Shown piece after piece: positions 12,241 to 35,492 of a DNA stretch of 48,540 nt. Position 1 is the stretch's first letter; each line of letters opens with the position of its first letter. A program made the position numbers and the translations under genes. Below the pieces are notes generated by a model, which ran no database searches, was not told the DNA's origin, and saw nothing but the letters and a program-made list of their open reading frames with translations. Source of the stretch: Desulfobacterales bacterium (GTDB taxonomy: Bacteria; Desulfobacterota; Desulfobacteria; Desulfobacterales; Desulfatibacillaceae); NCBI GenBank assembly GCA_020060085.1, contig JAGVAW010000034.1:1-48540 (forward strand), given 5' to 3'.

Positions 12241-13167
12241 TTATGCGACCTGGGGCCGTGGCAGAAGTCCGGCTCTTTCCACAATTTCGGGCACTATTTT
12301 TTCCCATTCGATGGCCATGATATGGAAACCGGCCACACCTTCCACCTGACTTAGCCGCTGTATTGTCTCGATGCAGATGTCAACGCCTTCCTGGGCCTGC
12401 TCCTCTTTGGGCTTTGCAGCCATTCTGGCGACAACATCATCGGGCACATCCATGCCCGGAACCTTGTTTTTCATATAACGGGCCATGCCCGCAGACTTCA
12501 TGGGAGTAACACCTGCCAGGATGTAACATTTTTCGTGCAGGCCGCGGTTTCTCACCCCTTCCATCCACTTTTCGAACTTGGGAATATTGTAGATGCACTG
12601 GGTCTGGATGAAATCCACGCCTGCCGCCACTTTTTTGGCAAGGCGCATCACGCGCAGCTCAAAGGGGTCTGCAAAGGGGTTTGCCGCAGCTCCGATGAAC
12701 ATTTTTGGGGGGTTTTCAATTTCCGCTCCGCCCTGGAACCTGCCTTCATCTCGCATGGTCTTTACCATCTGGATGAGCTGGATGGAGTCAATATCATGCA
12801 CGCTGGCAGCCATGGGGTGGTCGCCGAAATGAGGGTGATCCCCGGAAAGGCACAGCATTGTGTCGATTCCGTGGGCGTAGGCAGACAGGATTTCCGACTG
12901 CATGGCAAGGCGGTTCCTGTCGCGGGTCACCATCTGAAGCAGGGGGTTAAGGCCCATCTGCCTCAATAAAATGGATGCGCCAAGGCTTGACATTCTTACC
13001 ATTGCAGTCTGGTTGTCTGTAACATTGACTGCATCCACGAATCCGGCAAGCAACTGGCCCTTTTCCTTCACCTTTTCCGGCACAGCACCGCGGGGCGGGC
13101 CGCATTCGGAGGTCACTGCCAGATTTCCGTTAGCCAAAACTTTTTCCAGCACGCTGTTGGTTTTCAT
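12241..13167 (-). CDS. metF: Methylenetetrahydrofolate reductase (MetF, acetogen/SRB type)
   Basis: MTHFR-family pattern (AVTSECGPPRGA..., DAVNVTDNQ..., CLSGDHP...). It overlaps the upstream MetV-like gene by 4 nt. Confidence 0.8.
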   Translation of the reverse strand: MKTNSVLEKVLANGNLAVTSECGPPRGAVPEKVKEKGQLLAGFVDAVNVTDNQTAMVRMSSLGASILLRQMGLNPLLQMVTRDRNRLAMQSEILSAYAHGIDTMLCLSGDHPHFGDHPMAASVHDIDSIQLIQMVKTMRDEGRFQGGAEIENPPKMFIGAAANPFADPFELRVMRLAKKVAAGVDFIQTQCIYNIPKFEKWMEGVRNRGLHEKCYILAGVTPMKSAGMARYMKNKVPGMDVPDDVVARMAAKPKEEQAQEGVDICIETIQRLSQVEGVAGFHIMAIEWEKIVPEIVERAGLLPRPQVA

Positions 13168-13832
13168 CCGGCCAGATCCTCTCTCACGATTTTCCGTGGT
13201 CCACCGCCGCCGGCTGTCCGCCAGTCCTTTGCGGGTATGATGTCCAAGTATCTGTCCTCCTGGCCGAGCATCTTGAGCCTGTCCCAGATGAGCTGCCAGG
13301 CGCAGTCAACTTCCTTGCTTATTTCGCATTTGCCGTTTGTGGACCCGCCGCAAGGGCCGTTCATGAGCTGCTTGGAGCAGCGGGCGATGGGGCAGATTCC
13401 GCCGGTGATTCCCAAAAGGCAGTTGCCGCAGCCCTGGCATCTTTCAGCCCAGACTCCCTGCCTCTCGGAAGCTCCCATGAACTTGGTGTTAACCGCAGGG
13501 AAAACAGGCTTGTTCTTGTAGCGGCGGGCCATCTCCTGAACCCCGCAGCCGCAGGCCATGGAGACAACCGCATCCACGCCGTCCATCATCCCCACAATCT
13601 CTTCCACATATTCCGGATCGCATTGGCGCTCCAGGGTGTGCTCCTTGATCTCAATGCTCTTGCCCGCAGAGAGAAATGCCGATTGCAGGGCGCTAGACAA
13701 AAGCCCCACCTCCTTTCGCCCTCCGGCGGAGCAGACCGTCACGCACTCATTGCAGCCAACAAGAAGAATGCGGTTAAACGGCTGGATGTAATCCATTATT
13801 TCCTTTAGAGGCTTTCGTTCTGCTGTTATCAT
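13164..13832 (-). CDS. metV: MetV-like zinc/Fe-S subunit (MTHFR C-terminal-domain family)
   Basis: Cys-rich, with the hallmark CSKQLMNGPCGGSTNGKCE. The N-terminal part is LVGCNECVTVCSAGG. Confidence 0.7.
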   Translation of the reverse strand: MITAERKPLKEIMDYIQPFNRILLVGCNECVTVCSAGGRKEVGLLSSALQSAFLSAGKSIEIKEHTLERQCDPEYVEEIVGMMDGVDAVVSMACGCGVQEMARRYKNKPVFPAVNTKFMGASERQGVWAERCQGCGNCLLGITGGICPIARCSKQLMNGPCGGSTNGKCEISKEVDCAWQLIWDRLKMLGQEDRYLDIIPAKDWRTAGGGGPRKIVREDLAG

Positions 13833-13864: not shown

Positions 13865-14308
13865 TCAGGACGCCTTTTGCCTTGCCTGTTGCTCCAGTTG
13901 CGTGTGCACCGGGCTTGGGCCAAGCTCCCTTATTTTTTCGGTCATTTCTTTTGCCTTGCGGGCAAAAAACTCGCCCATCCCGGCAGACATGAAAACCATC
14001 TCAAGCCTGTCGCCGCCAATGCCGATTTCATCCAAAGACTTCCTTAAATACTGAACCTGCTTTTCGGCTTTGAGGTTGCCGTTCTTGAAATGACAGTCCC
14101 CTTCAAGGCAGCCTGCCACATAGACTCCGTCAGCGCCCCTTTCAAAGGCCTTGAGAATGTGGATTGCATCCACCTTGCCGGAGCAGGGCACCCGGATGAT
14201 CTTCACATTGGGCGGATAGTCAAGCCGCTGGCTGCCTGCCATGTCCGCAGCCGTGTATGCACAGTAGTGGCAGCAGAAGGCCACTATCACGGGTTCAAAC
14301 TTTTCCAT
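13865..14308 (-). CDS. mvhD: MvhD/FlpD-like [2Fe-2S] protein
   Basis: Translation EPVIVAFCCHYCAYTAADMAGSQRLDYPPNVKIIRVPCSGKVD...GADGVYVAGCLEGDCHF. The start shares 1 nt with the hdrA stop (TGATG). Confidence 0.85.
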   Translation of the reverse strand: MEKFEPVIVAFCCHYCAYTAADMAGSQRLDYPPNVKIIRVPCSGKVDAIHILKAFERGADGVYVAGCLEGDCHFKNGNLKAEKQVQYLRKSLDEIGIGGDRLEMVFMSAGMGEFFARKAKEMTEKIRELGPSPVHTQLEQQARQKAS

Positions 14309-17440: not shown

Positions 17441-18313
17441 CTACAATCCAGCCACATCCAGAATTGCCGGGATGCGATGCTCCCATCCCAGAGTCTGGAT
17501 AAGCACGCCCTGGGCAATGCCCTTTAGCGCGGCAACAGTTTCGCCTGCTATGCGGATGCCCTCGTTTTCGCGGTCAGCAGACTTGCGGATGCGGCTGATG
17601 AGGGCATCGGAGATTTTTGCAGACGGCTCGTTTGTGGCAATGTAGCGGGCAACAGCCACCGATTTCAAAAGAAACACGGTGGGAATGACCGGCACACCAA
17701 GGGCCGCGGCTTTTTTCAGAAAATCCGCGCTGGAATCCACATCAAAAACCGGCGGTGTGATTACAAAGCGGCATCCGGCATCAATCTTTCTTTTGGCAAG
17801 GGCCAGTTCTTCTTCCATTGCCTTTTGGTCTGCAAATGGAGCTATGGTGCAGCCGGTTTTAAAGCTGGGAACCCCGTCAAGCTCGAAACCGGCCATGTCC
17901 TTGCCTTCCACAAGCGAGCGGATGGCACCGATAAGCTCAATCTCGTCAATGTCATTCACGGGCCTGGCTTCGTGGTGATCGCCCACTTCCATTTCCTCGC
18001 CGTGAACAACAAGTATGTTCTCAATGCCAAGCACATGGGCGGCAAGGAGATCCCCCTGAAGGGCCATTCTGTTGCGGTCGCGGCAGTAAACATGGATTAT
18101 GGCCTCAATGCCCTGGCGGTGCATGAGCACGCCGCCTGCAAGGGCACTCATGCGCATGATTCCATTGTCCATGTCCGGGATGACAATGGCATCCACCCTG
18201 TCCTTTATGCGGCGGGCGTCAGTTACCAGCCGCGAGATATTGACGCCCTTGGGCGTGTGCATCTCGGCCAGCACGACAAATTCATCTGATTGCAATCGTC
18301 TTGAAAAACTCAT
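17441..18313 (-). CDS. MTHFR-family protein (second, divergent MetF-like paralog)
   Basis: Translation VVLAEMHTPKGVN...DAIVIPDMDNG...IHVYCRDRNRMALQGDLLAAHVLGIENILVV parallels the metF product (VTRDRNRLAMQSEILSAYAHGIDTMLCL). RBS GAAGGGAAAA lies upstream. Confidence 0.7.
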   Translation of the reverse strand: MSFSRRLQSDEFVVLAEMHTPKGVNISRLVTDARRIKDRVDAIVIPDMDNGIMRMSALAGGVLMHRQGIEAIIHVYCRDRNRMALQGDLLAAHVLGIENILVVHGEEMEVGDHHEARPVNDIDEIELIGAIRSLVEGKDMAGFELDGVPSFKTGCTIAPFADQKAMEEELALAKRKIDAGCRFVITPPVFDVDSSADFLKKAAALGVPVIPTVFLLKSVAVARYIATNEPSAKISDALISRIRKSADRENEGIRIAGETVAALKGIAQGVLIQTLGWEHRIPAILDVAGL

Positions 18314-18371: not shown

Positions 18372-19697
18372 CTACATTGCTGTTTCCGGATGGAACACAT
18401 TGACCTCTTTCAAATCATCTCCAAGGTACTCGCGCTCATTTGGGCCCAAAATGCCAAGCGAAAGGCAAATCAAGGTCCAAAGGTGTACGGTGCTGTAATT
18501 GCCGCCGAAATGGTGAGCCAGATCATGAATCTGGGCATGGCAGTTGTGGCAGGCGGCAATGCAGTAATCTGCTCCTGTTTCTATTATCTGGTCGAACTTA
18601 TACTTGCCGTAGGCCCGCCTTGCGTCCTGGTAGCCGGACTGCAAAAAGCCGCCTCCTCCACCGCAGCAGTAGTTGTTGCTTTTGTTGGGGGTCATGTCGA
18701 TGAAGTTTTCCTCGCCTACAACGCTTTTGACCACAAAGCGCAGGTCGTCTGCTGCCGAATCCCCGAAGCTCTTGCGGATTATCTGGCAGGGGTCCTGCAC
18801 CGTGAACTTTATTTTCAAATCCTTGTTCCAGTCGGAATTAACCTTGAGCTTGCCCTCGCGAATCCACCGGGCGTAGTATTGATAGATTGAAGCCACTTCA
18901 AAGTTGTGCTCGATGCCAAATTTTTTCAGTCCGGCCCGGACTGAGAATGTTATGTGCCCTCATTCGGTGTTGAGAAAGACCTTGCACCCAAGGTCATCGG
19001 CCTGCTTTGCGGATATGCGGGTGATGTGCTCCCATGCGTCATTGTCCGCCAGGAACAGGCAGTAGTTTTCGCCGCCCCAGCCCTTGCTGCCGTATGTCCA
19101 GTCCGCTCCCACAACATGGAGTATCTTCCACAGGGGCAAAAGCTCGTCAGGCTCTGTCACCGGCTCGCGGGAGTTCTGGTTGAGGAAAAAGTGCGCCCCC
19201 TGCTTGTCTATGGGCGCTTCCATTTCCGCAAATTCGGGCTGGGCCTCACGGTACTCCTCAAGCACATCGCCCACCACAAATTCAAAATCCTCCGGCGAGG
19301 TGCCCATTGCGCTGCAAGAGTCATTTCGCAGAGCCATGTCGCAGGATCCCAGAATGCCCTTGGGCCTTGTCTCGCGCGGCCATGTTGTCCGTGCGTTGTA
19401 AACAAGCTGGGGAATGTCGATCTGCATGGGGCAAACAAAAATGCAGCGCTGGCACATGGTGCACATCCACACCCAGGGCGTGCTTGTAATCTCTTCATCC
19501 ATGCCTAAAGCCGCCATGCGGAGGAACTTGCGCGGGTCCATGTTCTCCAGCCCGGTGGCCGGACAACCCGAAACGCAGGCCCCGCAGGTTAAACACAGGT
19601 TGAGATTGCCACCTTCAGGAAGAATCTCCTTTACCTTGTTTAAAAAGGTGCTTTTTTTCGGACTTTTCAGTTGAATTAAAGCAGTTGACATATCCAT
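18372..19697 (-). CDS. DsrK/HdrD-like Fe-S oxidoreductase (2x[4Fe-4S] + CCG domain), probable selenoprotein with in-frame TGA at 18960..18962
   Basis: ORFs 18960..19697 and 18372..18896 are in the same frame. They are separated only by one TGA and 21 sense codons. The N-terminal part has CLTCGACVSGCP and CTMCQRCIFVCP. The C-terminal part has a complete CCG domain (C-X39-CCG-X36-CxxC: DPC...YCCGGGGG...CHNC). A hairpin follows the TGA. Confidence 0.65.
18926..18944 (-). promoter_or_regulatory. Candidate bacterial SECIS hairpin
   Basis: The mRNA reads UGA-N15-UCAGUCCG-GGC-CGGACUGA. This gives an 8-bp perfect stem and a G-rich apical loop that starts 23 nt after the UGA. Confidence 0.5.
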
Positions 19698-19763: not shown

Positions 19764-20009
19764 TTAACAGGACTTTTTTATCCGCACCCGGAAGAAGTAG
19801 TCGCTGCCTTCTGTAACCTCCATGAGAACAACCTCGTAGGAGTCGGCTGGCAGCAGCTTGAAAAGATCTTTTCTCACATCCGGGTCGGATCCCAATATCT
19901 CCAGAATTTCAGCAGGCAGCATCTTGTTAAAGACCTTGGTCATCTTGAGCAGGGAAAGGGGAGAGATGCTGCCCCTAAAATCCAGTAAATGATTTGTTAT
20001 TTCGTCCAT
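19764..20009 (-). CDS. TusA/SirA-fold small protein lacking the catalytic Cys (first gene of operon A)
   Basis: Translation MDEITNHLLDFRGSISPLSLLKMTKVF...ILEILGSDPDVRKDLFKLL. The layout is TusA-like, but SP replaces the CP motif. The ATG at 20009 is preceded by GGGAGAGG. Confidence 0.6.
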   Translation of the reverse strand: MDEITNHLLDFRGSISPLSLLKMTKVFNKMLPAEILEILGSDPDVRKDLFKLLPADSYEVVLMEVTEGSDYFFRVRIKKSC

Positions 20010-20044
20010 GGTCGCCTCTCCCTTCAAAGTCTGGCCAGGGTAAA

Positions 20045-20059
20045 GCAAGACGCGGGCCA
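20045..20059 (-). promoter_or_regulatory. Sigma54 (-24/-12) promoter of operon A
   Basis: The minus strand reads TTGGCCCGCGTCTTGCT, against the consensus YTGGCACGrNNNTTGCW. GG and GC have the correct spacing. The site lies about 36 nt upstream of the ATG at 20009. Confidence 0.6.
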
Positions 20060-20216
20060 AAAATGACGCAATGCAATAAAAATTTTAATTATCCAATAAA
20101 ACCAAAATGTTGATAATGATAAAAATAATGGTTATCTTGTTATTGTTGCTAAAGGCGGATTGTTTTGTTAAAAGCAGGCGCCTTTACATGTGTAAAGGCT
20201 TAACAGGAGTTGCTTA

Positions 20217-25416: not shown

Positions 25417-28400
25417 ATGTCCATCCGTATAGGCTGCTATGTCTGCCATTGCGGCATCAACATCGCCCACAAGGTAAGGGTTGCCGAGGTGGCTCAATAC
25501 GCACTTGGCCTTGAAGGCGTTGTGGTGGCAAGGGACTACAAGTTCATGTGCTCTGATCCGGGCCAGGAGATGATCGAAAAAGACATCCGTGAATTTGGTT
25601 TGAACAGGGTGGTGGTTGCCTCCTGCTCGCCCAGGCTGCACGAAAAAACCTTTCGAGGGGCCTGCGAGAGGGGCGGCATAAACCCCTATCTTTTTCAGAT
25701 GGCATCTGTGCGGGAGCAGGTTTCGTGGGTGACGGCAGACGAAAACGAAGCCACCAGCAAGGCCAAGCACCTTGTTAACGCTGCTGTGCGCCGGGTGGGG
25801 CAGCACCGGGAACTGGACAAGCGCGAGGTTGTTGTTCACCCGGATGTACTTGTGGTGGGCGGCGGAATTGCCGGAATGCAGGCGGCATTGGACATAGGGG
25901 CCTCCGGCCACAAGGCCTACCTTGTGGAAAAAAGCACAACCATCGGCGGCCACATGCTTCAGTTCGACAAAACCTTTCCAACCCTGGACTGCGCTGCCTG
26001 CATAGGCACCCCCAAAATGGTGGATGTGGCCCAGAACTCCTGCATTGAGCTTCTTTCGTACAGTCAGGTGGAGGAGGTCAGCGGCTACATCGGCAACTAC
26101 ACGGTCAAAGTCCGCCGGAATCCCCGCTTCATCAAGGAAGGCATATGCACAGGATGCGGTGAATGCACCAAGGTCTGTCCGGTCATACGGCCAAGCGAAT
26201 GGGACGAGAATCTTGCAACCCGCAAGGCCATTTACCGCTCCTTCCCCCAGGCCGTGCCCATAACCTACTGCATAGAAAAAAAGGATCGCGCCCCCTGTGT
26301 CAGCGCCTGCCCGGCAGGAATCAATGTCCAGGGCTATGTTCAGCTTATAGGCCAGGGAAAATACCGCGAAGCAATAGAGCTTATACGCCAGAGGATGCCT
26401 CTGCCGGGGATTCTGGGCCGGGTCTGCCCTCATCCCTGCGAGGAAAAATGCCGCCGCAGCGAGCTTGATTCGCCTGTGGCAATCCGCGACCTCAAACGCT
26501 TTGCCGCTGATCAGGTGGACATTAAATCCCTGCCCCGGCCTTTAATTTCCGAGCGGCCCGAAAAGGTGGCCATCATAGGTTCAGGCCCAGGCGGGCTTTC
26601 GGCTGCTTATTTTCTGCGGCTTGCAGGTTTTTCTGTAAGCATTTTTGAAAAGCTCTCCGTGCTTGGCGGAATGTTAAGGGTTGGCATTCCAGATTATCGC
26701 CTGCCAGCGTGCGTTCTGGATAAAGAGATAGAGGCCATTCTGGATCTGGGCGTGAAAGTTGAGACAAACAAGGCTCTGGGAAAAGATTACTCCTTAAAGG
26801 AGCTTGAAGAAAAAGGCTTTGCCGCGGTTCTTCTGGCAATAGGCGCCCACGGGGGTGCGGATATGGAAATCCCCGGAGAAAAGGATTGTGAAAATGTCAT
26901 CAATGCCGTGGATTTTTTGCGTGAGATAAACCTTGGTTCCCGCAAAAAGCCCGGCGATAGGGTCGCAATAATAGGCGGCGGCAATGTGGCCATTGATGCG
27001 GCCCGCATGGCCAAAAGGCTTGGCTGCAAAGAGGTGACTGTTGTTTACCGCCGCACCCGCGAGCAGATGCCTGCTTATAAAGATGAAATTGAAGGTGCCC
27101 TGGCCGAGGGCGTTAAAATGCTCTTTCTCTGCGCACCCTTACAGGTGGAAGGTGCAGGGGGGCGCGCCACGGGGCTGAAATGCCAGCGCACGGAGCTTGG
27201 CCTGCCGGACAAAAGCGGGCGCAGAAGCCCCCAGCCTGTAGAAGGCTCGGAATTTGTAATTGAGTGCGATGCAATAATTCCGGCAATCGGCCAGAAAATG
27301 GATGCCCCCTGGGCAGGGGGCGACAGCAGCCTTGCAGTTAACAGGCGTGGCTACTTTGAGGCAGACCCCAATACCATGCAGACAGGCAACGACTTTGTGT
27401 TTGCCTGCGGAGATGCGGTAACAGGCCCGGCCACGGTTATTGAAGCTGTTGCAGGGGGCCGCCGGGCAGCCCTTGCCATTGCCGATTATTTGAACAGGGG
27501 CAAAAGGGCCTCCCTTGCCGGGCAGGAGGAACAAAAAGCAGAAAAAGAGCCGGAATGGGCGGCCATTCCTCCTGGCCTTGCCCCCCAAAAGCGCGCCCAG
27601 GCCGAGCACCTTGACCCAAAAACCCGGATTTTGGGCTTTGACGAGGTTGAAGCAGCCTTTGGTGAGGATGCGGCAAGGGCAGAGGCGTCCCGTTGCCTTA
27701 ACTGCGGCGTATGTTCCGAGTGCATGGAATGCGTAAAGGTCTGCGAGGCTAAGGCCATTGATCACTCCATGAAACCGGAAATCCGCGAAATCAAGGTGGG
27801 CAGCATAATTCTGGCAACAGGCTACGATCTTTTTGACCCATCGGTTTTAAAGCCTTTGGGTTATGGCGTTTATCCTAATGTTTTCACAAGCCTGGAGTTC
27901 GAACGCCTCTCCAATGCCACAGGCCCAACAGGCGGGGAGATTTTGATTCGCGACCAAAACGGGCAACTGACCAAAAAACCCAAAAGCGTTGCAATATGCC
28001 ATTGCGTGGGCAGCCGGGATGTGAACCACCACGAATACTGCTCACGGGTGTGCTGTATGTATGCGCTCAAATACGGACACCTCATAAAAGAAAAGGTGGG
28101 GCACAACACGCAGATATATGACTTTTTTATTGATATGCGCTGCTTTGGCAAGGGCTACGAGGAGTTTTTCCGGCGCTGTCAGGAAGAGGGCAGCCAGTTT
28201 ATAAGGGGCAAGGTGGCCCAGGTTACAGACAGGGCAAAAACTCCCGAAGAAGAAGGAAAGCTAATAGCCATAGCAGAGGACACCCTGCTTGGCCGGCGCG
28301 TGCGCGTGCCTGTGGACATGGTCATCCTTTGCCCTGCAATGGAGGCCCGCAAAGATGCACCTGCTGTTGGGCGGATTTTCGGGGTAAACCAGGGCGCGGA

Positions 28401-28827
28401 CGGCTTTTTTCTGGAAGAGCATCCCAAGCTTGGGCCGCTCAACACGGCAACGGACGGCGTTTTTCTGGCCGGTGCCTGCCAGTCTCCCAAAGACATTCCC
28501 GACACTGTGGCCCAGGCCTCCGGCGCGGCGGCCAAGGCCCTTTCCCTTGCAACAAAGGGCAGGGTTCCGGTTCCTTCGGCCATTTCGTGGATTGACCCGG
28601 ATATGTGCGCGGGCTGCAAAACCTGCATAGGCCTTTGTCCTTACGGCGCAATCGAGTTTGACGAGTTTGCCCAGGTTTCGGTGGTAAACGAGGCGGTATG
28701 CAAGGGCTGCGGAAGCTGTTCGGGCTTCTGCCCCTCCGGTGCAGCCCAGGTGAAGCACTTCAACAAAAAGCAGGTCTTTGCAGAGTTCGAGGGCATGATG
28801 GAAGGCCTGTGTGCAACCAAAAACTGA
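25417..28827 (+). CDS. HdrA-like flavoprotein fused with a GltD-type NAD(P)H-binding module (HdrL-like, 1136 aa)
   Basis: HdrA N-domain IGCYVCHCGINIA, FAD fold VLVVGGGIAGMQAALDIGASGH, and ferredoxin motif CTGCGECTKVCP. It is then GltD-like (CVSACPAGINVQGY...GRVCPHPCEEKCRR, KVAIIGSGPGGLSAAYFL, VAIIGGGNVAIDAAR). It returns to HdrA-like CHCVGSR...CSRVCC, followed by CAGCKTCIGLCP and CKGCGSCSGFCP. Confidence 0.85.
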   Translation: MSIRIGCYVCHCGINIAHKVRVAEVAQYALGLEGVVVARDYKFMCSDPGQEMIEKDIREFGLNRVVVASCSPRLHEKTFRGACERGGINPYLFQMASVREQVSWVTADENEATSKAKHLVNAAVRRVGQHRELDKREVVVHPDVLVVGGGIAGMQAALDIGASGHKAYLVEKSTTIGGHMLQFDKTFPTLDCAACIGTPKMVDVAQNSCIELLSYSQVEEVSGYIGNYTVKVRRNPRFIKEGICTGCGECTKVCPVIRPSEWDENLATRKAIYRSFPQAVPITYCIEKKDRAPCVSACPAGINVQGYVQLIGQGKYREAIELIRQRMPLPGILGRVCPHPCEEKCRRSELDSPVAIRDLKRFAADQVDIKSLPRPLISERPEKVAIIGSGPGGLSAAYFLRLAGFSVSIFEKLSVLGGMLRVGIPDYRLPACVLDKEIEAILDLGVKVETNKALGKDYSLKELEEKGFAAVLLAIGAHGGADMEIPGEKDCENVINAVDFLREINLGSRKKPGDRVAIIGGGNVAIDAARMAKRLGCKEVTVVYRRTREQMPAYKDEIEGALAEGVKMLFLCAPLQVEGAGGRATGLKCQRTELGLPDKSGRRSPQPVEGSEFVIECDAIIPAIGQKMDAPWAGGDSSLAVNRRGYFEADPNTMQTGNDFVFACGDAVTGPATVIEAVAGGRRAALAIADYLNRGKRASLAGQEEQKAEKEPEWAAIPPGLAPQKRAQAEHLDPKTRILGFDEVEAAFGEDAARAEASRCLNCGVCSECMECVKVCEAKAIDHSMKPEIREIKVGSIILATGYDLFDPSVLKPLGYGVYPNVFTSLEFERLSNATGPTGGEILIRDQNGQLTKKPKSVAICHCVGSRDVNHHEYCSRVCCMYALKYGHLIKEKVGHNTQIYDFFIDMRCFGKGYEEFFRRCQEEGSQFIRGKVAQVTDRAKTPEEEGKLIAIAEDTLLGRRVRVPVDMVILCPAMEARKDAPAVGRIFGVNQGADGFFLEEHPKLGPLNTATDGVFLAGACQSPKDIPDTVAQASGAAAKALSLATKGRVPVPSAISWIDPDMCAGCKTCIGLCPYGAIEFDEFAQVSVVNEAVCKGCGSCSGFCPSGAAQVKHFNKKQVFAEFEGMMEGLCATKN

Positions 28828-28846
28828 CAAGAAAAGGAAACCCTTT

Positions 28847-29290
28847 ATGGAAAGCCAACAGGAAAACAGGCAGGATTTTGAGCCTTTCATAGTCGCCTTT
28901 GTCTGCAACTGGTGCACCTATACAGCAGCAGACCTGGCCGGAACAAGCAGGCTGCAAATTCCAAAGAATGTTCACTTAATCCGGGTAATGTGCACAGGCA
29001 TGGTGGACAGCCAGTACATAATAAAGGCACTTCTGGAAGGCGCGGACGGCGTGCTTGTGAGCGGCTGCCACCCCGGCGACTGCCATTACATAAACGGCAA
29101 TTTTAAGGCAAGGCGCCGTATGAAGCTTTTACAGGCAATGCTCGCAACAATGGGCATAGAGCCGCAAAGGCTGCGCCTTACCTGGATAGGGGCAAGTGAC
29201 GGAATACAGTTTGCCAAAACCATGCGCGAGCTTGTGGAGCAGGTGCGCCAGCTTGGCCCCAACCCCGGCGCTGCCCGCTCTGTTGCATAA
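28847..29290 (+). CDS. mvhD: MvhD/FlpD-like [2Fe-2S] protein (second copy)
   Basis: Translation EPFIVAFVCNWCTYTAADLAGTSRLQIPKNVHLIRVMCTGMVD...GADGVLVSGCHPGDCHY. The ATG at 28847 is preceded by AAAGGAAA. Confidence 0.85.
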   Translation: MESQQENRQDFEPFIVAFVCNWCTYTAADLAGTSRLQIPKNVHLIRVMCTGMVDSQYIIKALLEGADGVLVSGCHPGDCHYINGNFKARRRMKLLQAMLATMGIEPQRLRLTWIGASDGIQFAKTMRELVEQVRQLGPNPGAARSVA

Positions 29291-29341: not shown

Positions 29342-30499
29342 ATGGCCCAAACCGCAACAATAGATGCGCCGAATAAGGATATTTCGCTGGGTATAAAAAA
29401 CTTCCTCGGCCAGCTTTTAAAATCCGGCCTTGCAGAAGCTGTGCTGCTTCCTTTGCGCCAGCCCGGATCAACAACCGTGATGCCCGGCCTTGTAACAGAC
29501 CCGGATGCCCTGGAGCAGGCAGACCTTTTGGCCCCTGTTGCTCCTTTGTCCGCAGCCCGCATGGCTGCAAGGCTCACCCGCAGGTCAACTGGCAAACCTG
29601 TGGCTGCGGTGCTGCGCCCCTGCGAGGTCCGGGCCTTTATCGAGCTTGTAAAGTTCAACCAGGCAAAAGCGGAGGACATTCTTCTTATAAGTGCGGACTG
29701 CGCTGGCGTTATGTCCAACAAGGATTACGGCACCTTTGCCGCAGCAGAGGCAAGCCCTCCCGGAGAGCGGTTCTGGAAGGCTGCGGGCAGGGGAGACGCA
29801 ACGCAGGTGGACGGCTTTTCCCTGGCCTCGGCCTGCAAGGTCTGCGAACAGCCATTCTCTTCAAGCGCTGACATAAGCCTTGGTATTCTGGGCGCAGATG
29901 GTTCTGTTGGCATTCCAGCAACTGCCAACACGCAAAAGGGCGAAGATGCCCTCAAAAAGCTTGGCCTTGACCAATCTCCACCAAATAAGGCTCACCAGAA
30001 AGTCCTTTCAATGCTTGTTGAAAGGCGCAGCCAGGCAAAACAGGCGCTGTTTGCCACAATGGAAGAAAAGGTCAACAGCCTTGGAGCTTTGAATAAATAT
30101 TTTGAAAACTGCGTCAACTGCTACAACTGCCGGGTAGCCTGCCCCATCTGCTATTGCAGGGAATGCGTTTTTTTAACCGATGCCTTTGATCATGATCCAC
30201 CCCTTTACCTTAATTGGGCTTTTAGGAACAAGGCAATCAAAATGCCTACAGACACGGCCTTTTTCCACCTCACGCGGCTTGCCCACATGAGCACTTCCTG
30301 TGTTGGCTGCGGCCAGTGCACAAACGCCTGCCCAAACGACATTCCTGTGGCAGACCTTTTCATCAGGGTATCTGCTGCAACCCAAAAGGCCTTTGAATAC
30401 CAGCCGGGGCAAAGCCTGGAGGAAAAGCCGCCCCTGGCGGTTTTTGAGGCTGACGAGTTTGGAGAGGCTGTGGGCATAAAAAGCAAGGCTGCATCCTGA
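29342..30499 (+). CDS. FrhB/FdhB-like Fe-S (flavo)protein with 2x[4Fe-4S] motifs
   Basis: Cys motifs CVNCYNCRVACPICYC and CVGCGQCTNACP. The N-terminal part (VAAVLRPCEVRAFIELVK...LLISADCAG) resembles the F420-hydrogenase beta family. The family call is tentative. Confidence 0.5.
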   Translation: MAQTATIDAPNKDISLGIKNFLGQLLKSGLAEAVLLPLRQPGSTTVMPGLVTDPDALEQADLLAPVAPLSAARMAARLTRRSTGKPVAAVLRPCEVRAFIELVKFNQAKAEDILLISADCAGVMSNKDYGTFAAAEASPPGERFWKAAGRGDATQVDGFSLASACKVCEQPFSSSADISLGILGADGSVGIPATANTQKGEDALKKLGLDQSPPNKAHQKVLSMLVERRSQAKQALFATMEEKVNSLGALNKYFENCVNCYNCRVACPICYCRECVFLTDAFDHDPPLYLNWAFRNKAIKMPTDTAFFHLTRLAHMSTSCVGCGQCTNACPNDIPVADLFIRVSAATQKAFEYQPGQSLEEKPPLAVFEADEFGEAVGIKSKAAS

Positions 30500-30556: not shown

Positions 30557-33500
30557 ATGTCATTGACAGAGCAGAAAATAGGCAGGGCACTTGTGGTTGG
30601 GGCAGGGGTGGGCGGAATCCGCGCAGCCCTGGACTTGGCCCAGAGCGGATACAGGGTGACCCTCATTGAAAAGGAAGCCCACACAGGCGGCATTCTTGCC
30701 AAGCTGGACAGGCAGTTTCCAACAGACCGCTGCGGCATGTGCAAGATGCTGCCGACAATAAAAAGGGATGCTGTGTCCCAGCATTGCCTTCGCAGGGGCC
30801 TTTTCCACGAGAACATTGAAATAATTACCGGAGCCAGCCTGCTTGCCCTGGAAGGAACTCCGGGAAATTTTTCGGCCCGCATTCAGGAAAACCCCCGATG
30901 GGTGGATGCAGACCTATGCACAGGCTGCGGCCTTTGCGAGCAGGTTTGCCCTGTGGAAATAAAAAACCCCTTCAACCAGCACATGGGGCTTTGCAAGGCC
31001 ATTCATCTGCCCACCCCGCACTCAATTCCCAACTCCTATGTAATTGACACAACAGCCTGCACCCGCTGCGGAGAATGCGAAAAGGTCTGCCCCACAGGGG
31101 CCATCCGCATAAGCTGGCAGGACAGGGAGAGATTTCGCGTTCTGGTGGTGGATGATGAGCTTATTGTCCGAAGCTCCCTTGAAGCCTGGCTTTCAAAAGA
31201 GGCCGGTTTCAGCGCAGATACTGCCGGCTCCGGCGAGGAGGCCCTGGAACTTCTCGGCACAAACAGCTACCAGGTGATGTTTCTGGACATAAAGATGCCA
31301 GGCATGGACGGTATGGAGGTTCTGGAAAAGGCAAAGGGAATCTCCCCGGACACCGCTGTTGTAATGATGACAGCCTATGCCACGGTGGAAACCGCTGTGG
31401 AGGCCATGAAAATAGGGGCACTGGACTATCTGGTAAAGCCCTTTGATGCGGAATCGGTTCTGCCCAAAGTCAATTCCATTTACGAAGCCCTGCAGCTTTC
31501 CACAGCCCGCAAACTGGATGTGGGGGCCGTGGTTTTGTGCGGCGGAGTGAGCTATTTCGACCCTTCCACCGGCAAAGACACTTTTTGCTATGGCGCTTCC
31601 AAAAATGTGGTCACAAGCCTTGAGTTCGAGCGGATGTTAAGCTCGTGCGGCCCCTTTGAAGGCAAGCTGCTGCGGCCCGATAACTTAAAGCCCGTGCAGA
31701 AAGTGGCCTTTATCCAGTGTGTCGGGTCCCGCGATATTGGCCTGAATGCCGATTTCTGCTCAAGCGCCTGCTGCGCCTTTGCAGTAAAGGAGGCAAGGCT
31801 TGCCGTGGAGCAGTCCAACAGCCAGGTGGAGGCCGCCATTTTTTACATGGATATGCGCGCCTACCAAAAGCCCCTTGAAAGCTATTGCCAGGATGCCCGC
31901 GAGCAGTACGGCGTGCGCTTTGTAAAAAGCCGGGTGCATTCGGTTATTGCGGATAAAGACAACAACTGCATTTTGCGCTATCCATCTCCCCAGGACGGCT
32001 CCATGCAGGAGGAGAGCTTTGACATGGTGGTTCTGGCTGTGGGCCAGCGCCCGGCAAAGGCCAGCCGCGAGCTTGCAGACATGCTTGAGCTGCCTGTAAA
32101 CGAATTTGGCTTTATAAAAACCCTGCCCTTTTCCTGCTGCGAGACAGAAAAACCCGGAATCTTTGCTGGCGGCTCCTTTACGGGCTTGAAGGATATAAAC
32201 GAATCCCTCATCTGCGCGGGTGCGGCAGCCCAAGGGGCATCCCTTGCGCTTCATGGAGCAGGCGGAAGCCTTGCCCCTGTTGCAAAGGCAATTAGGCCCG
32301 ACCCGGAGCTTCTGCGCGCGCTTCCGTCAGTTTTTATTGCTCTTTGCACCTGCAACAACAAACTTGGCAGGGTTGAAGATGAAAAGGCCCTTGCCGATAA
32401 ACTCAAATATCAGCCCTGCGTAAAAAAGGTGCATGCCTTTGAGAGGCTTTGCACAAGCAGCGGGTTTGATGAGCTTGTTGAAGCTGTAAAAAAATCCGGG
32501 GCAAACCGGCTGCTGGTGGGCACCTGCCTGCCCCATCTGCACGAAAGCCGCATAATTGAGCTTGCCCGCACCCTTAAGGTGGATCGGGCCTGCGTGGAAG
32601 TGACAGATATCTTTGCGCCAGCAAACAGGGATGGGCAGCAAGGCGAACCCAAAGGCCTTTCCGGCTCATCAGAGGTTTTGAGCATCCTGCTTTCAGGCAT
32701 TGCCCGGCTTAAAAGGGTCAGGCCCCATCCCCTGCCGACAATTCCGGTCACTCAACAGGCGCTGATAATCGGCGGGGGAATTGCAGGAATAACAGCCGCC
32801 CTTGCAATTGCAGACCAGGGCTTTGAGGTGGAGCTTGTGGAAAAGGGCCAAAGGCTCGGCGGCAACCTCTCTTGGATAAAGCGCACCATAGAAGGCCTTG
32901 AAACCGCCCCCCTGCTGGAAGAAACCCTTGGCAGGCTGGAAAAGCATCCGCTTATAACCCTGCACACCCAGGCAGGTGTTTTGGCCACAACAGGGAGTAT
33001 AGGCTCCTTTGAAAGCCGCGTGGCAACCAATAACGGCGAGCACACAATTGCCCACGGAGTCTGCATTCTGGCCACCGGAGCCGATGAAGCGCCTGTGAAG
33101 GGCTTTGGCTATGGCCTTGCCGAATCGGTGATGACCCAAAAGGAGTGGGAAAGCGCTCTTGAAAAGAACAGCCAGGAGGCTTCAAACCTGGAATCAATTG
33201 TTTTCATCCAATGCGCCGGGTGCCGCAGTGAAGAAAGAAACTACTGTGCGCGGGTCTGCTGCGCCACCACCCTTAAGCAGGCCCTTTATATAAAAGTGCA
33301 AAACCCCTCTTCCGCCGTTTTCGTTCTTTATCGGGACATGATGGCCTACGGCCAGATGGAGTCCTATTACACCCAGGCCCGGAGAATGGGCGTGATTTTT
33401 ATCCCCTATAAGAAAGACTGCCCACCGTCCGTGGAAAAAAAGGATGAAGGCCTTTTTGTTACCGCCTTTGACCCGATTCTGCAAAAGGATCTCTGCATAA

Positions 33501-33994
33501 GCGCAGACAGGGTGATTTTGGCCGCAGGCCTTGCACCAGAACTGCCGGAAGACCTTGCAGCAGGCCTGGGAATACAAATTGACGAGCATGGATTCTTTAA
33601 GGAAGCCCAATTCAAGTGGCAGCCCGTGGAATCGGCCACCAGCGGCTTTTTTGCCTGCGGAGCAGTGCTTGGTCCAAGAAACATAAGCGAGTCAATAGCT
33701 TCGGCCAAAGCTGCGGCGTCAAGGGCGCTTGCCCTTCTTACAAAGGAGAGCATTACCGGGGGCCGGATAAGCGCCTCTGTGCGGCCAAGCCTTTGCAGCC
33801 TGTGCGAGCGCTGCATTGAGGCCTGCCCCTATGGCGCGCGGACATTGGATACAGAGAATGAAAAAATCCTGGTCAACCCGGCCCTGTGCCAGGGCTGCGG
33901 CTCTTGTGTGACGGCCTGCCCCAATGGAGCCTCGGTGCTGGAGGGTTTTTTAAGGGAGCAGATGCTCGAAACCATTGATGCGGCCTTTGCCTGA
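30557..33994 (+). CDS. Tandem HdrA-like flavoprotein with an inserted CheY-type receiver domain (1145 aa)
   Basis: It is collinear with 14308..17358 (ALVVGAGVGGIRAALDLAQSGY, CTGCGLCEQVCP, CTRCGECEKVCP, QCVGSRD...CSSACC, ALIIGGGIAGITAALAIADQGF, QCAGCRS...CARVCC, CSLCERCIEACP, CQGCGSCVTACP). It also carries a REC block at residues 193..312. Confidence 0.85.
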   Translation: MSLTEQKIGRALVVGAGVGGIRAALDLAQSGYRVTLIEKEAHTGGILAKLDRQFPTDRCGMCKMLPTIKRDAVSQHCLRRGLFHENIEIITGASLLALEGTPGNFSARIQENPRWVDADLCTGCGLCEQVCPVEIKNPFNQHMGLCKAIHLPTPHSIPNSYVIDTTACTRCGECEKVCPTGAIRISWQDRERFRVLVVDDELIVRSSLEAWLSKEAGFSADTAGSGEEALELLGTNSYQVMFLDIKMPGMDGMEVLEKAKGISPDTAVVMMTAYATVETAVEAMKIGALDYLVKPFDAESVLPKVNSIYEALQLSTARKLDVGAVVLCGGVSYFDPSTGKDTFCYGASKNVVTSLEFERMLSSCGPFEGKLLRPDNLKPVQKVAFIQCVGSRDIGLNADFCSSACCAFAVKEARLAVEQSNSQVEAAIFYMDMRAYQKPLESYCQDAREQYGVRFVKSRVHSVIADKDNNCILRYPSPQDGSMQEESFDMVVLAVGQRPAKASRELADMLELPVNEFGFIKTLPFSCCETEKPGIFAGGSFTGLKDINESLICAGAAAQGASLALHGAGGSLAPVAKAIRPDPELLRALPSVFIALCTCNNKLGRVEDEKALADKLKYQPCVKKVHAFERLCTSSGFDELVEAVKKSGANRLLVGTCLPHLHESRIIELARTLKVDRACVEVTDIFAPANRDGQQGEPKGLSGSSEVLSILLSGIARLKRVRPHPLPTIPVTQQALIIGGGIAGITAALAIADQGFEVELVEKGQRLGGNLSWIKRTIEGLETAPLLEETLGRLEKHPLITLHTQAGVLATTGSIGSFESRVATNNGEHTIAHGVCILATGADEAPVKGFGYGLAESVMTQKEWESALEKNSQEASNLESIVFIQCAGCRSEERNYCARVCCATTLKQALYIKVQNPSSAVFVLYRDMMAYGQMESYYTQARRMGVIFIPYKKDCPPSVEKKDEGLFVTAFDPILQKDLCISADRVILAAGLAPELPEDLAAGLGIQIDEHGFFKEAQFKWQPVESATSGFFACGAVLGPRNISESIASAKAAASRALALLTKESITGGRISASVRPSLCSLCERCIEACPYGARTLDTENEKILVNPALCQGCGSCVTACPNGASVLEGFLREQMLETIDAAFA
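31133..31492 (+). other. REC (phospho-acceptor receiver) domain embedded in the HdrA-like ORF
   Basis: Translation FRVLVVDDELIVRSSLEAWL...YQVMFLDIKMPGMDGMEVLEK...AVVMMTAYATVETAVEAMKIGALDYLVKPF. All canonical REC residues are present: D199, D200, D244, T272 and K294. Confidence 0.85.
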
Positions 33995-34023: not shown

Positions 34024-34587
34024 ATGATACCAGAAGAGCGGCCATTTGTTGCACCGGACAAATACCACGAGCTTGAAGGCGTGCAGAAGATGCTTGCCGC
34101 CTGCATTCAATGCGGCACATGTTCAGGCTCGTGCCCCAATGCCTTTGCAATGGATGTCACCCCAAGAACCCTGTGGCGCATGGTGTTAAGGGGGGAAAAA
34201 GAGGCAATTTTTGCGACAAGGACCTTCATCTTGTGCTCATCCTGCTACTCCTGCACCCTGCGCTGCCCGCGCGGCCTGCCCCTTACCGAGGCAATGGGCG
34301 CATTGAAGCAGATAGCCTCCCGTGAGGGCCTTGCTCCGTACAAGGCAAGCACCCGCTTCTATGCAAGCTTTCTGGACAGCGTGCGCCGCCACGGCAGGGT
34401 TAGGGAAGGAGAGATGATGAGCCTTTACTTTATGTCCATGAAAAACCCGCTTCTGCCCCTGCAATTTGCGTCCCTGGGCATGAAACTCATGCTTAAGGGC
34501 AAGGTGGGCGCACCCTTTCCCACAAGGGGAAAAAGACCTTTGGAAGCACTTTTCAACAAGGTCATGCAACTGGAGAAAAACCCATGA
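34024..34587 (+). CDS. hdrC: HdrC-like heterodisulfide reductase subunit C
   Basis: Motifs CIQCGTCSGSCP and CSSCYSCTLRCP, at typical HdrC size. RBS AAGGAAG lies upstream. Confidence 0.8.
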   Translation: MIPEERPFVAPDKYHELEGVQKMLAACIQCGTCSGSCPNAFAMDVTPRTLWRMVLRGEKEAIFATRTFILCSSCYSCTLRCPRGLPLTEAMGALKQIASREGLAPYKASTRFYASFLDSVRRHGRVREGEMMSLYFMSMKNPLLPLQFASLGMKLMLKGKVGAPFPTRGKRPLEALFNKVMQLEKNP

Positions 34588-35492
34588 AATACTTTTATTA
34601 TCCGGGCTGCTCCCTGGAGGGCACAGCCCAGGAATACAGCCTTTCCACAACAGCGCTTCTGGCAGCATTGGGAGGCGAGATTGAGGAGCTGCCCGACTGG
34701 AACTGCTGCGGGGCAACGGCTGCCGAGTCCGTAAGCCGCCTGCTTTGTCTGGCGCTGCCGGCCCGTAACCTTGCCCTTGCAGAAAAGGCTGTGCCCGGCC
34801 AGGACATACTGGTTCCGTGCAGTGCCTGCTATTTGAACATGAGGCGGGCCTGGGACAAGGTTCGCCACGACCCGGCCACCCGCAGTCAGATAAACCAGAC
34901 CCTTGAAGAGGAGGGGCTTGCTGTTTCCGGCTCAACAAAGGTGCGCCACCTTTTGGATGTGCTTTGCCTGGATTTTGGCGCTGATGCTGTTTTTAAAAGG
35001 CTTCAACGCTCCCTGGCAGGCCTTGTTGTGGCCCCCTACTACGGGTGCCAGTGCTTGCGGCCATATCCGGTTTTCGATGACCCCGAAGCACCATCCTGCA
35101 TGGAGCCTCTCATACAGGCCACCGGCGCAAAGGTGCATCCCTGGAGCATGGGTGCCGTGTGCTGCGGGGCATCCCACATGACCACAAAAAAGGAGGTTGG
35201 CCTTGCCCTTGTGGGGGAGATTTTGGATGACGCCAAAGGCGCGGATGTGATTGTAACCGTCTGCCCCATGTGCCAGATGAATCTTGAGGCCCACCAGAAA
35301 AAAATCTCCAGACAAAGGGGCAAAGACCTTTCCATAAGCATACTCTATCTTCCCCAGCTTCTGGGGATGGCCCTTGGCCTGCCGGAAAAGGATTTGGGGC
35401 TGAAGTTGAATCTGGGCATAGCCCCCGGCTTTATGGAAAAACTGCGCTCGCCCCTTATGGCTTCCAAAACAAAAAAGGCGGATGCAGCATGA
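34584..35492 (+). CDS. hdrB: HdrB-like heterodisulfide reductase subunit B (two CCG domains)
   Basis: Motifs YYPGCSLEG...WNCCGA...VPCSACY and YYGCQC...AVCCGA...VCPMCQ. It overlaps hdrC by 4 nt. Confidence 0.85.
   Translation: MKYFYYPGCSLEGTAQEYSLSTTALLAALGGEIEELPDWNCCGATAAESVSRLLCLALPARNLALAEKAVPGQDILVPCSACYLNMRRAWDKVRHDPATRSQINQTLEEEGLAVSGSTKVRHLLDVLCLDFGADAVFKRLQRSLAGLVVAPYYGCQCLRPYPVFDDPEAPSCMEPLIQATGAKVHPWSMGAVCCGASHMTTKKEVGLALVGEILDDAKGADVIVTVCPMCQMNLEAHQKKISRQRGKDLSISILYLPQLLGMALGLPEKDLGLKLNLGIAPGFMEKLRSPLMASKTKKADAA

Follow-up and report, generated by a model that had tools for sequence, protein, structure and literature searches.

Here we report a gene on the minus strand of a 48,540-nt stretch of Desulfobacterales DNA (assembly GCA_020060085.1, contig JAGVAW010000034.1; the whole stretch is called the window below) in which an apparent in-frame stop is very probably a selenocysteine (Sec) codon followed by its own recoding hairpin. 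On comparative sequence evidence we have little doubt that positions 18372-19697 hold one selenoprotein gene and not two genes, that the UGA at codon 246 would be recoded as Sec, and that the hairpin downstream of it would act as a bacterial selenocysteine insertion sequence (bSECIS). We read the locus as a single gene because over 2,000 homologues consist of one chain of about 435 aa, because the break lies inside an HdrB-like fold, and because no ribosome-binding site (RBS) precedes the GTG with which a second protein would have to begin.

The open reading frames (ORFs) 18960..19697 and 18372..18896 form one frame, from the ATG at 19697 to the stop at 18372, and a TGA is the sole interruption of its 441 codons (coordinates of the features are collected in Table 1). 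The 21 sense codons 3' of the TGA read GHITFSVRAGLKKFGIEHNFE and lead to the GTG at 18896, before which there is no Shine-Dalgarno-like sequence (the bases upstream are ...GCACAACTTTGAA). The original prediction, made by a model from the letters of the window, had described this single frame, its lone TGA, the 21 sense codons and a GTG without a convincing RBS, all of which we reproduced at the same coordinates. A systematic scan of the window for same-frame segments joined by a TGA, combined with Pfam annotation, found no other selenoprotein gene; the remaining same-frame pairs are ordinary neighbouring genes or non-coding frames.

The homologues give the interrupted codon its identity. A search of 5.8 billion proteins returned 2,310 homologues at E <= 1e-10, the best 120 of which (57-79% identical) each consist of one polypeptide, in nearly every case 412-460 aa long; no split at this point was found in the family. 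The TGA column is Cys in 120/120 of these closest full-length homologues, in the context ...LNTE-C-GH..., and likewise in 35/35 full-length relatives of 27-38% identity that an exhaustive HMMER search of 1.84 billion cluster representatives recovered, there within the motif [T/S/G/P]-E-C-G-H. An E-C-G-H motif in Cys-containing homologues had been predicted, and it is borne out at both distances. Among the 35 distant relatives, C119, C213 and C238 of the first domain are unconserved, and the Sec-position residue alone is conserved. In the HMMER listing, many database "proteins" stop exactly at ...LNTE or begin a few residues after the site, and both kinds of entry are gene calls truncated at the TGA codon. 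Half-protein entries of this kind include P0123, P0137, P0146, P0155, P0183, P0130, P0132 and P0190; P0183 is only 38% identical over the N-terminal half, and the Sec site reaches more distant branches of the family.

The TGA itself is widely conserved. The degenerate pattern [F/Y]-L-N-T-E-TGA-G-H-x-T-[F/Y], searched against one genome per species (GTDB representatives), has a chance expectation of about 0.07 matches by our own estimate (44 bits, 1.2e12 positions), and it was found in at least 120 genome contigs. The matches listed all come from Desulfobacterales, Desulfobulbales or unclassified "delta proteobacterium" metagenome-assembled genomes (MAGs), and none of them is identical to the window. 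Cultured organisms with the same TGA include Desulfoluna limicola ASN36, Desulfocicer vacuolatum DSM 3385 and Desulfoprunum benzoelyticum. Where no contig end cuts the gene, nearly every contig keeps an open frame of about 245 codons upstream and about 195 downstream of the TGA, and both halves in the TGA loci are 62-86% identical to those of the window. Sequencing error, pseudogene and split gene are excluded because the open frame and both halves are conserved in at least 120 contigs; the concern that the TGA was an error in this one assembly thus disappears with its recurrence in at least 120 other genomes.

The second line of evidence is the hairpin. Its sequence, UCAGUCCG-GGC-CGGACUGA, forms eight perfect pairs at -11.0 kcal/mol alone, with 15 nt from the UGA to the stem and 23 nt from the UGA to the loop, reproducing both the position and the spacing first proposed for it. 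It lies within 4/4 published bSECIS criteria (PMC13188914, Fig. 2 legend: a loop of 3-9 nt with a stem of 4-16 bp, G in the first two loop positions, a UGA-loop distance of 16-37 nt and a minimum free energy <= -7.5 kcal/mol). This energy threshold is reached in 117/121 loci, and the loop begins with GG in 106/112 sequences and with GU in 6/112.

Our search pattern stopped at the base that precedes the hairpin, and the conservation of the hairpin was not built into the search. Across 117 distinct sequences, 97.9% of pair cells form standard pairs, a figure that drops to 18-45% on sliding the 3' partners by 1-3 columns, and compensatory changes on both sides occur in 4/8 pairs (72 cells in total); RNAalifold returns the same helix. 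Shuffles matched the observed pairing or covariation score in 0/500 cases, a count that is inflated by the relatedness of the 117 sequences and is not a probability. At the top of the stem, 57 sequences have G-C and 50 have U-A; the 5' base of this pair is position 2 of an Arg/Leu codon (CGG/CUG) and the 3' base the synonymous position 3 of the next Ala codon (GCC/GCA); similarly, a Leu-to-Gln change (CUG to CAG) is offset by a synonymous change in a Ser codon. In four Cys-codon homologues (TGT/TGC) the hairpin is missing or decayed, and two of those four loci also hold, a few hundred bases away, a TGA paralogue with the canonical hairpin. For a covariance model of the element, R1, the 48.5-kb window contains a single forward-strand match with E < 1, at 77.9 bits from a training alignment that included the window sequence; the model gives 67 and 64.8 bits to the independent TGA paralogues at loci L121 and L122, 34-38 to the Cys copies next to them and 14 to a distant Cys form. 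By these comparisons the hairpin is a conserved, covarying element tied to the TGA, in keeping with the bacterial SECIS geometry that had been proposed for it.

Two observations concern the surroundings of the stem. Conservation continues past it, at 18915-18925 (minus), where AAAAAAUU (alignment A1, columns 41-47) is >=90% identical and both Lys codons of the 3' flank are AAA, not AAG, in about 90% or more of sequences; this AAA-rich flank may be either part of the recoding signal or a codon preference only. An extra helix that pairs the UGA region in the single-sequence fold (GAAUG/CAUUC) was rejected as lying outside the consensus structure.

TGA and Cys copies stand side by side at L121:3924-7023 and L122:6001-9200 (Magnetomoraceae MAG GCA_965250315.1; ENA contig), where the Cys copies retain a decayed remnant of the hairpin (34-38 bits with R1, versus 65-67 for the TGA copies). 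The pattern suggests a recent duplication followed by Sec-to-Cys conversion, the Cys copy perhaps being a backup for selenium shortage.

Several observations weigh against recoding. Of all TGA triplets in the window, 3.7% precede a hairpin that has SECIS-like geometry and a stem of 8 bp or more, and the local fold is only 1.35 standard deviations better than shuffles (z = -1.35); alone, the hairpin is weak evidence, and its significance comes from the comparative data, where the relatedness of the sequences has to be allowed for as above. Rfam returned no SECIS family either at gathering thresholds over the whole window or in a permissive scan of the site, a null result that is uninformative because bacterial SECIS elements are family-specific. 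Finally, selA, selB, selC, selD and a tRNA-Sec are all absent from the 48.5-kb window, and it is on the strength of lineage only that we take the source genome to have the decoding machinery; related lineages do possess sel genes (PMC2702500, PMC1794560).

If the TGA were instead a true stop, translation would give a ferredoxin-like protein of 245 aa and, from GTG 18896, a CCG protein of 174 aa, and these would assemble as HdrC and HdrB do. Gene callers do yield both halves, with many such calls in public databases, and HdrC and HdrB are separate subunits in methanogens. The break, however, lies inside the first HdrB-like domain and therefore not at the HdrC/HdrB boundary (near residue 105); moreover, the 21 codons between TGA and GTG are conserved as protein, the GTG has no RBS, Cys occupies the position in every full-length homologue, and a conserved covarying hairpin follows the TGA forms only. 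We judge two separate proteins very unlikely. We think it equally improbable that read-through of the UGA inserts something other than Sec, or Sec along with something else, for example near-cognate Cys or Trp, or that termination occurs under selenium limitation, with the hairpin then serving mainly as a regulatory pause site or attenuator: the agreement of the hairpin with the SelB-type consensus, including the loop G-G just described, and the cataloguing of the family as a selenoprotein in organisms with a full sel set (PMC1794560, PMC2702500) outweigh the fact that no Sec machinery is seen in the window and the hedging against selenium shortage that the tandem Cys paralogues at L121 and L122 suggest. 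Least probable of all is that a Cys codon has suffered a nonsense mutation, making the gene a pseudogene, or has been misread in sequencing or assembly; the comparative data in effect refute this. TGA is one base from TGC or TGT, but an identical TGA recurs in at least 120 independent assemblies with halves conserved at 62-86%, and the SECIS accompanies TGA only.

The product of this probable selenoprotein gene can be described from its joined translation. With Cys replacing the stop, Pfam places a di-cluster ferredoxin (Fer4_8/Fer4_17) at residues 32-94 and CCG at 299-390, and PDB sequences match as methanogen HdrC over residues 20-104 and as HdrB over residues 257-416. This mapping confirms the arrangement of the original prediction, with ferredoxin motifs upstream of the TGA and the only complete CCG domain downstream; the complete motif, C304-X39-C344C345-X37-C383-X2-C386, lies where it had been placed, and only its second spacing, given as X36, needed the trivial correction to X37. 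It aligns with HdrB residue for residue in profile comparisons with PDB sequences. Pfam finds this single CCG stretch, and the first CCG-type domain, which carries U246, is degenerate: two complete five-Cys CCG motifs, as in HdrB and HdrD proper, are not present, the first domain keeping the Sec-position residue only. An AlphaFold2 model of the closest Cys form (79% identical to the window protein) has a predicted local distance difference test score (pLDDT) of 84.4 and a predicted template-modelling score (pTM) of 0.85, and Foldseek searches with it give template-modelling (TM) scores of 0.66 for EtfD (query-normalised) and 0.61-0.67 for whole HdrB subunits (target-normalised). Because the model superposes on EtfD and on whole HdrB subunits, the degenerate first domain is predicted to adopt the HdrB fold as well.

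The top NCBIfam matches of the joined product are HmcF, TmcB and DsrK, with GlpC also matched; no equivalog cut-off is reached (HmcF 159 vs 750, TmcB 156 vs 735, DsrK 107 vs 400). The label "DsrK/HdrD-like" in the original prediction holds, then, as a resemblance and not as a membership: since the scores fall far below the cut-offs, the window protein is a paralogue of the DsrK group and not a member, a soluble HdrD-type fusion. Like DsrK, HmcF and TmcB it combines two cubane clusters with a single CCG motif and has the invariant T/G-E-C-G-H position; unlike them it has Sec for Cys, and no membrane cytochrome b or NrfD-type gene is adjacent. With methanogen HdrB/HdrD and mycobacterial EtfD (PDB 5ODC, 7BKB, 8RVU, 9OJN) it shares the two-domain fold, whereas in HdrB both CCG motifs are complete and there are two noncubane clusters, and the first motif of the window protein is reduced to one conserved residue, the Sec.

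Much of this is already known, in that the finding is a rediscovery of a selenoprotein family catalogued some twenty years ago. "Fe-S oxidoreductase (GlpC)" was among 25 bacterial selenoprotein families in 2006, with members in Syntrophobacter fumaroxidans, Desulfotalea psychrophila and Desulfovibrio vulgaris that cluster with hdrA and frhD (PMC1794560), and it turned up once more in the symbionts of Olavius (PMC1976440). In current reviews the family is listed with the Sec motif UGH, as "predicted with high confidence" and as uncharacterised in function (PMC9312934, PMC13188914). Sec forms of HdrA, FrhD/MvhD and COG0247 "GlpC" in deltaproteobacteria, which the original prediction had named, are indeed reported (PMC1794560). 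The window gene carries the U-G-H motif and combines a di-cluster ferredoxin with CCG in a cluster with hdrA and mvhD, and so fits the GlpC/COG0247 selenoprotein family on every feature tested, the comparison being with the description of the family and not with the sequence of WP_174406253.1. The likeness extends to its COG0247/HdrD-like Fe-S type, its taxonomic range and its clustering with hdrA and frhD/mvhD; the difference lies in the operon, glpC-hdrA-frhD-frhG-frhA in the GlpC family, with hydrogenase subunits, as against MetF-like, HdrA, MvhD, MetV and MetF in the window, with no hydrogenase genes.

Another counterpart is found in Desulfobacterium autotrophicum HRM2, in which a Sec-containing soluble HdrD (hdrD4) was annotated in 2009; that genome has Sec and non-Sec paralogues in every Hdr group and a full selABCD set (PMC2702500). 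HdrD4 and the window protein are alike in being soluble, Sec-containing HdrD types from Desulfobacterales, with homology to HdrC and HdrB and no transmembrane part, and the window gene is likely orthologous to hdrD4, as compared by description with a paper text that gives no Sec position. Like the E. coli fdhF-type SECIS and the bSECISearch consensus (PMC13188914), the putative bSECIS is a stem-loop in the coding region close behind the UGA, and its small apical loop opens with G-G at 23 nt; it differs in its unrelated sequence and in its perfect 8-bp stem without a bulged U, and it is covered by none of the Rfam models.

What may be new is a link between the UGH selenoprotein site and a Cys already proposed to be catalytic. 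DsrK, HmcF and TmcB have a single CCG motif, and from the missing second motif one strictly conserved Cys is left, in T/GECGH, which has been proposed as their catalytic residue (Barbosa et al. 2024, PMC10861901). Within the library searched we found no paper tying the "UGH" Sec site to GECGH, and the DsrK paper (PMC10861901) makes no mention of selenium.

The mechanism that we propose begins with decoding. The hairpin 15 nt past the UGA would act as a bSECIS: once it has recruited SelB-GTP-Sec-tRNA(Sec), a ribosome with the UGA in its A site would read the codon as Sec and not as a stop; we infer this SelB step from the consensus and comparative data and from established bacterial Sec insertion. 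The product, about 49 kDa in size, would be a soluble HdrD-type Fe-S protein. Its HdrC-like domain would carry two cubane [4Fe-4S] clusters, and its HdrB-like part would contain only one complete five-Cys CCG motif of the kind that binds a noncubane [4Fe-4S] cluster in homologues. The Sec would be the single residue left from the lost first CCG site, at the T/G-E-C-G-H Cys. Its most likely role is that of a redox-active nucleophile beside the noncubane cluster, because the T/G-E-C-G-H Cys is invariant across the superfamily and is proposed to be catalytic in DsrK, HmcF and TmcB. In this role it would attack a disulfide or polysulfide substrate to form a selenenyl-sulfide, which electrons from the clusters would then resolve. 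The partners would be the MetF-like protein, HdrA, MvhD and the MetV-MetF module encoded directly downstream, an association that conserved synteny suggests.

Structural comparison gives this placement of Sec some context. In the AlphaFold2 model the Sec-position residue lies between beta-strand 238-241 and helix 246-257, and C381-x-x-C384 of the complete domain shows the same local geometry. The first CCG domain of EtfD has C581-x-H583-C584, of which His583 ligates the noncubane cluster of the second domain (PMC13083937), and the spacing to the first Cys of the next domain is similar (58 residues for U246-C304, 56 for C581-C637 in EtfD). U-G-H may thus correspond to C581-x-H583 of EtfD, as judged from spacing, predicted secondary structure and PMC10861901 and not from alignment. 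Three points limit this reading: U246 could possibly be a cluster ligand instead; profile comparison of the protein with PDB sequences aligned the second CCG domain only, and not the first, with HdrB; and hhalign of domain 1 with domain 2, which might have placed U246 relative to the CCG motif, gave a probability of 2.7% and no usable alignment. The further proposal, that Sec at T/G-E-C-G-H is evolutionary evidence for a nucleophile over a structural ligand and that the enzyme forms the terminus, reducing disulfide or polysulfide, of an electron-bifurcating MetF/HdrA/MvhD module in Wood-Ljungdahl sulfate reducers, seems to us evenly balanced between true and false.

The operon order in the window is TusA-like, Sec gene, MetF-like, HdrA-like, MvhD, MetV, MetF, and the same order recurs in many TGA loci; in others HdrA-MvhD-(MetV-MetF) precedes the Sec gene. 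HdrA is present in 56 of the fetched loci and MvhD in 36. The neighbours of the Sec gene all give Pfam matches typical of soluble proteins, and annotation of these neighbours found no membrane quinone-interacting subunit of the DsrM, HmcE or TmcC type adjoining it. The HdrA and MvhD copies had been described as Cys forms, and so they are: the MvhD copies read CCHYC and CNWC, and the three HdrA/HdrL-like ORFs have no internal stop.

Table 1. Features of the window discussed in the text
Feature	Position	Strand	Description
Probable selenoprotein gene, 441 codons + stop	18372..19697	minus	joined ORFs; domain, fold and homologue data
In-frame UGA, codon 246, motif T-E-U-G-H	18960..18962	minus	Cys column in homologues; TGA conserved
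Putative bSECIS hairpin	18926..18944	minus	5' arm 18937-18944; loop GGC 18934-18936; 3' arm 18926-18933
Span of covariance model R1, 57 nt	18909..18965	minus	UGA, conserved spacer, hairpin, A-rich 3' flank; 77.9 bits
TusA-like gene without CPxP Cys	19764..20060	minus	upstream of Sec gene; syntenic in 19 fetched loci
MTHFR-family (MetF-like) gene	17441..18313	minus	immediately downstream of Sec gene, same operon
HdrA-like flavoprotein, 1016 aa	14308..17358	minus	no internal stop
MvhD (FlpD), Cys form CCHYC	13865..14308	minus	operon member
MetV	13164..13832	minus	conserved module
MetF	12241..13167	minus	end of conserved module
Second Hdr cluster: HdrL-like	25417-28827	plus	
Second Hdr cluster: MvhD	28811-29290	plus	
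Second Hdr cluster: FrhB-like	29342-30499	plus	
Second Hdr cluster: HdrA-like with receiver domain	30557-33994	plus	
Second Hdr cluster: HdrC	34024-34587	plus	
Second Hdr cluster: HdrB	34584-35492	plus	

Several further observations were made on these genes and their relatives. The TusA-like protein of the window reads GSISPLS at the CPxP site, and the Cys is missing in every locus examined; judging by this motif it cannot be a classical persulfide carrier. We rejected it as a thiol substrate: no copy has the CPxP Cys, and the Cys at the C-terminus of the window protein is not conserved. Two MTHFR-family genes occur in the operon, the divergent MetF-like gene and, after HdrA-MvhD, the MetV-MetF pair (12241-13832), and MetF-like and MetF are only about 30% identical (tblastn against each other's homologues in the fetched loci). 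In Desulfonema magnum (L123:1687-7308) a Cys-form homologue adjoins EtfAB genes, not Hdr/MetF genes, so family members at about 70% identity occupy different electron-transfer contexts. Elsewhere in the window, residues 195-304 of the HdrA-like flavoprotein (1145 aa) of a second Hdr cluster form an embedded receiver domain of the response-regulator type, and PAS histidine kinases and sigma-54 activators surround that cluster.

Annotators should join the two gene calls as a single selenoprotein, and the same mis-split is widespread in public protein databases. The locus also provides a clean comparative set for one bacterial SECIS, with 117 sequences, coupling between synonymous and nonsynonymous changes, and matched Cys-form controls. 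The biological value is modest, and no new kind of system is revealed; what the family offers is a Sec that marks the proposed catalytic Cys of the DsrK-type single-CCG reductases and is usable for studies of their mechanism. If the proposal is true, the replacement of this Cys by Sec in well over a hundred species would be independent evidence on the role of the residue, and would bear on the way in which substrate cleavage is achieved by a reductase that has one noncubane cluster.

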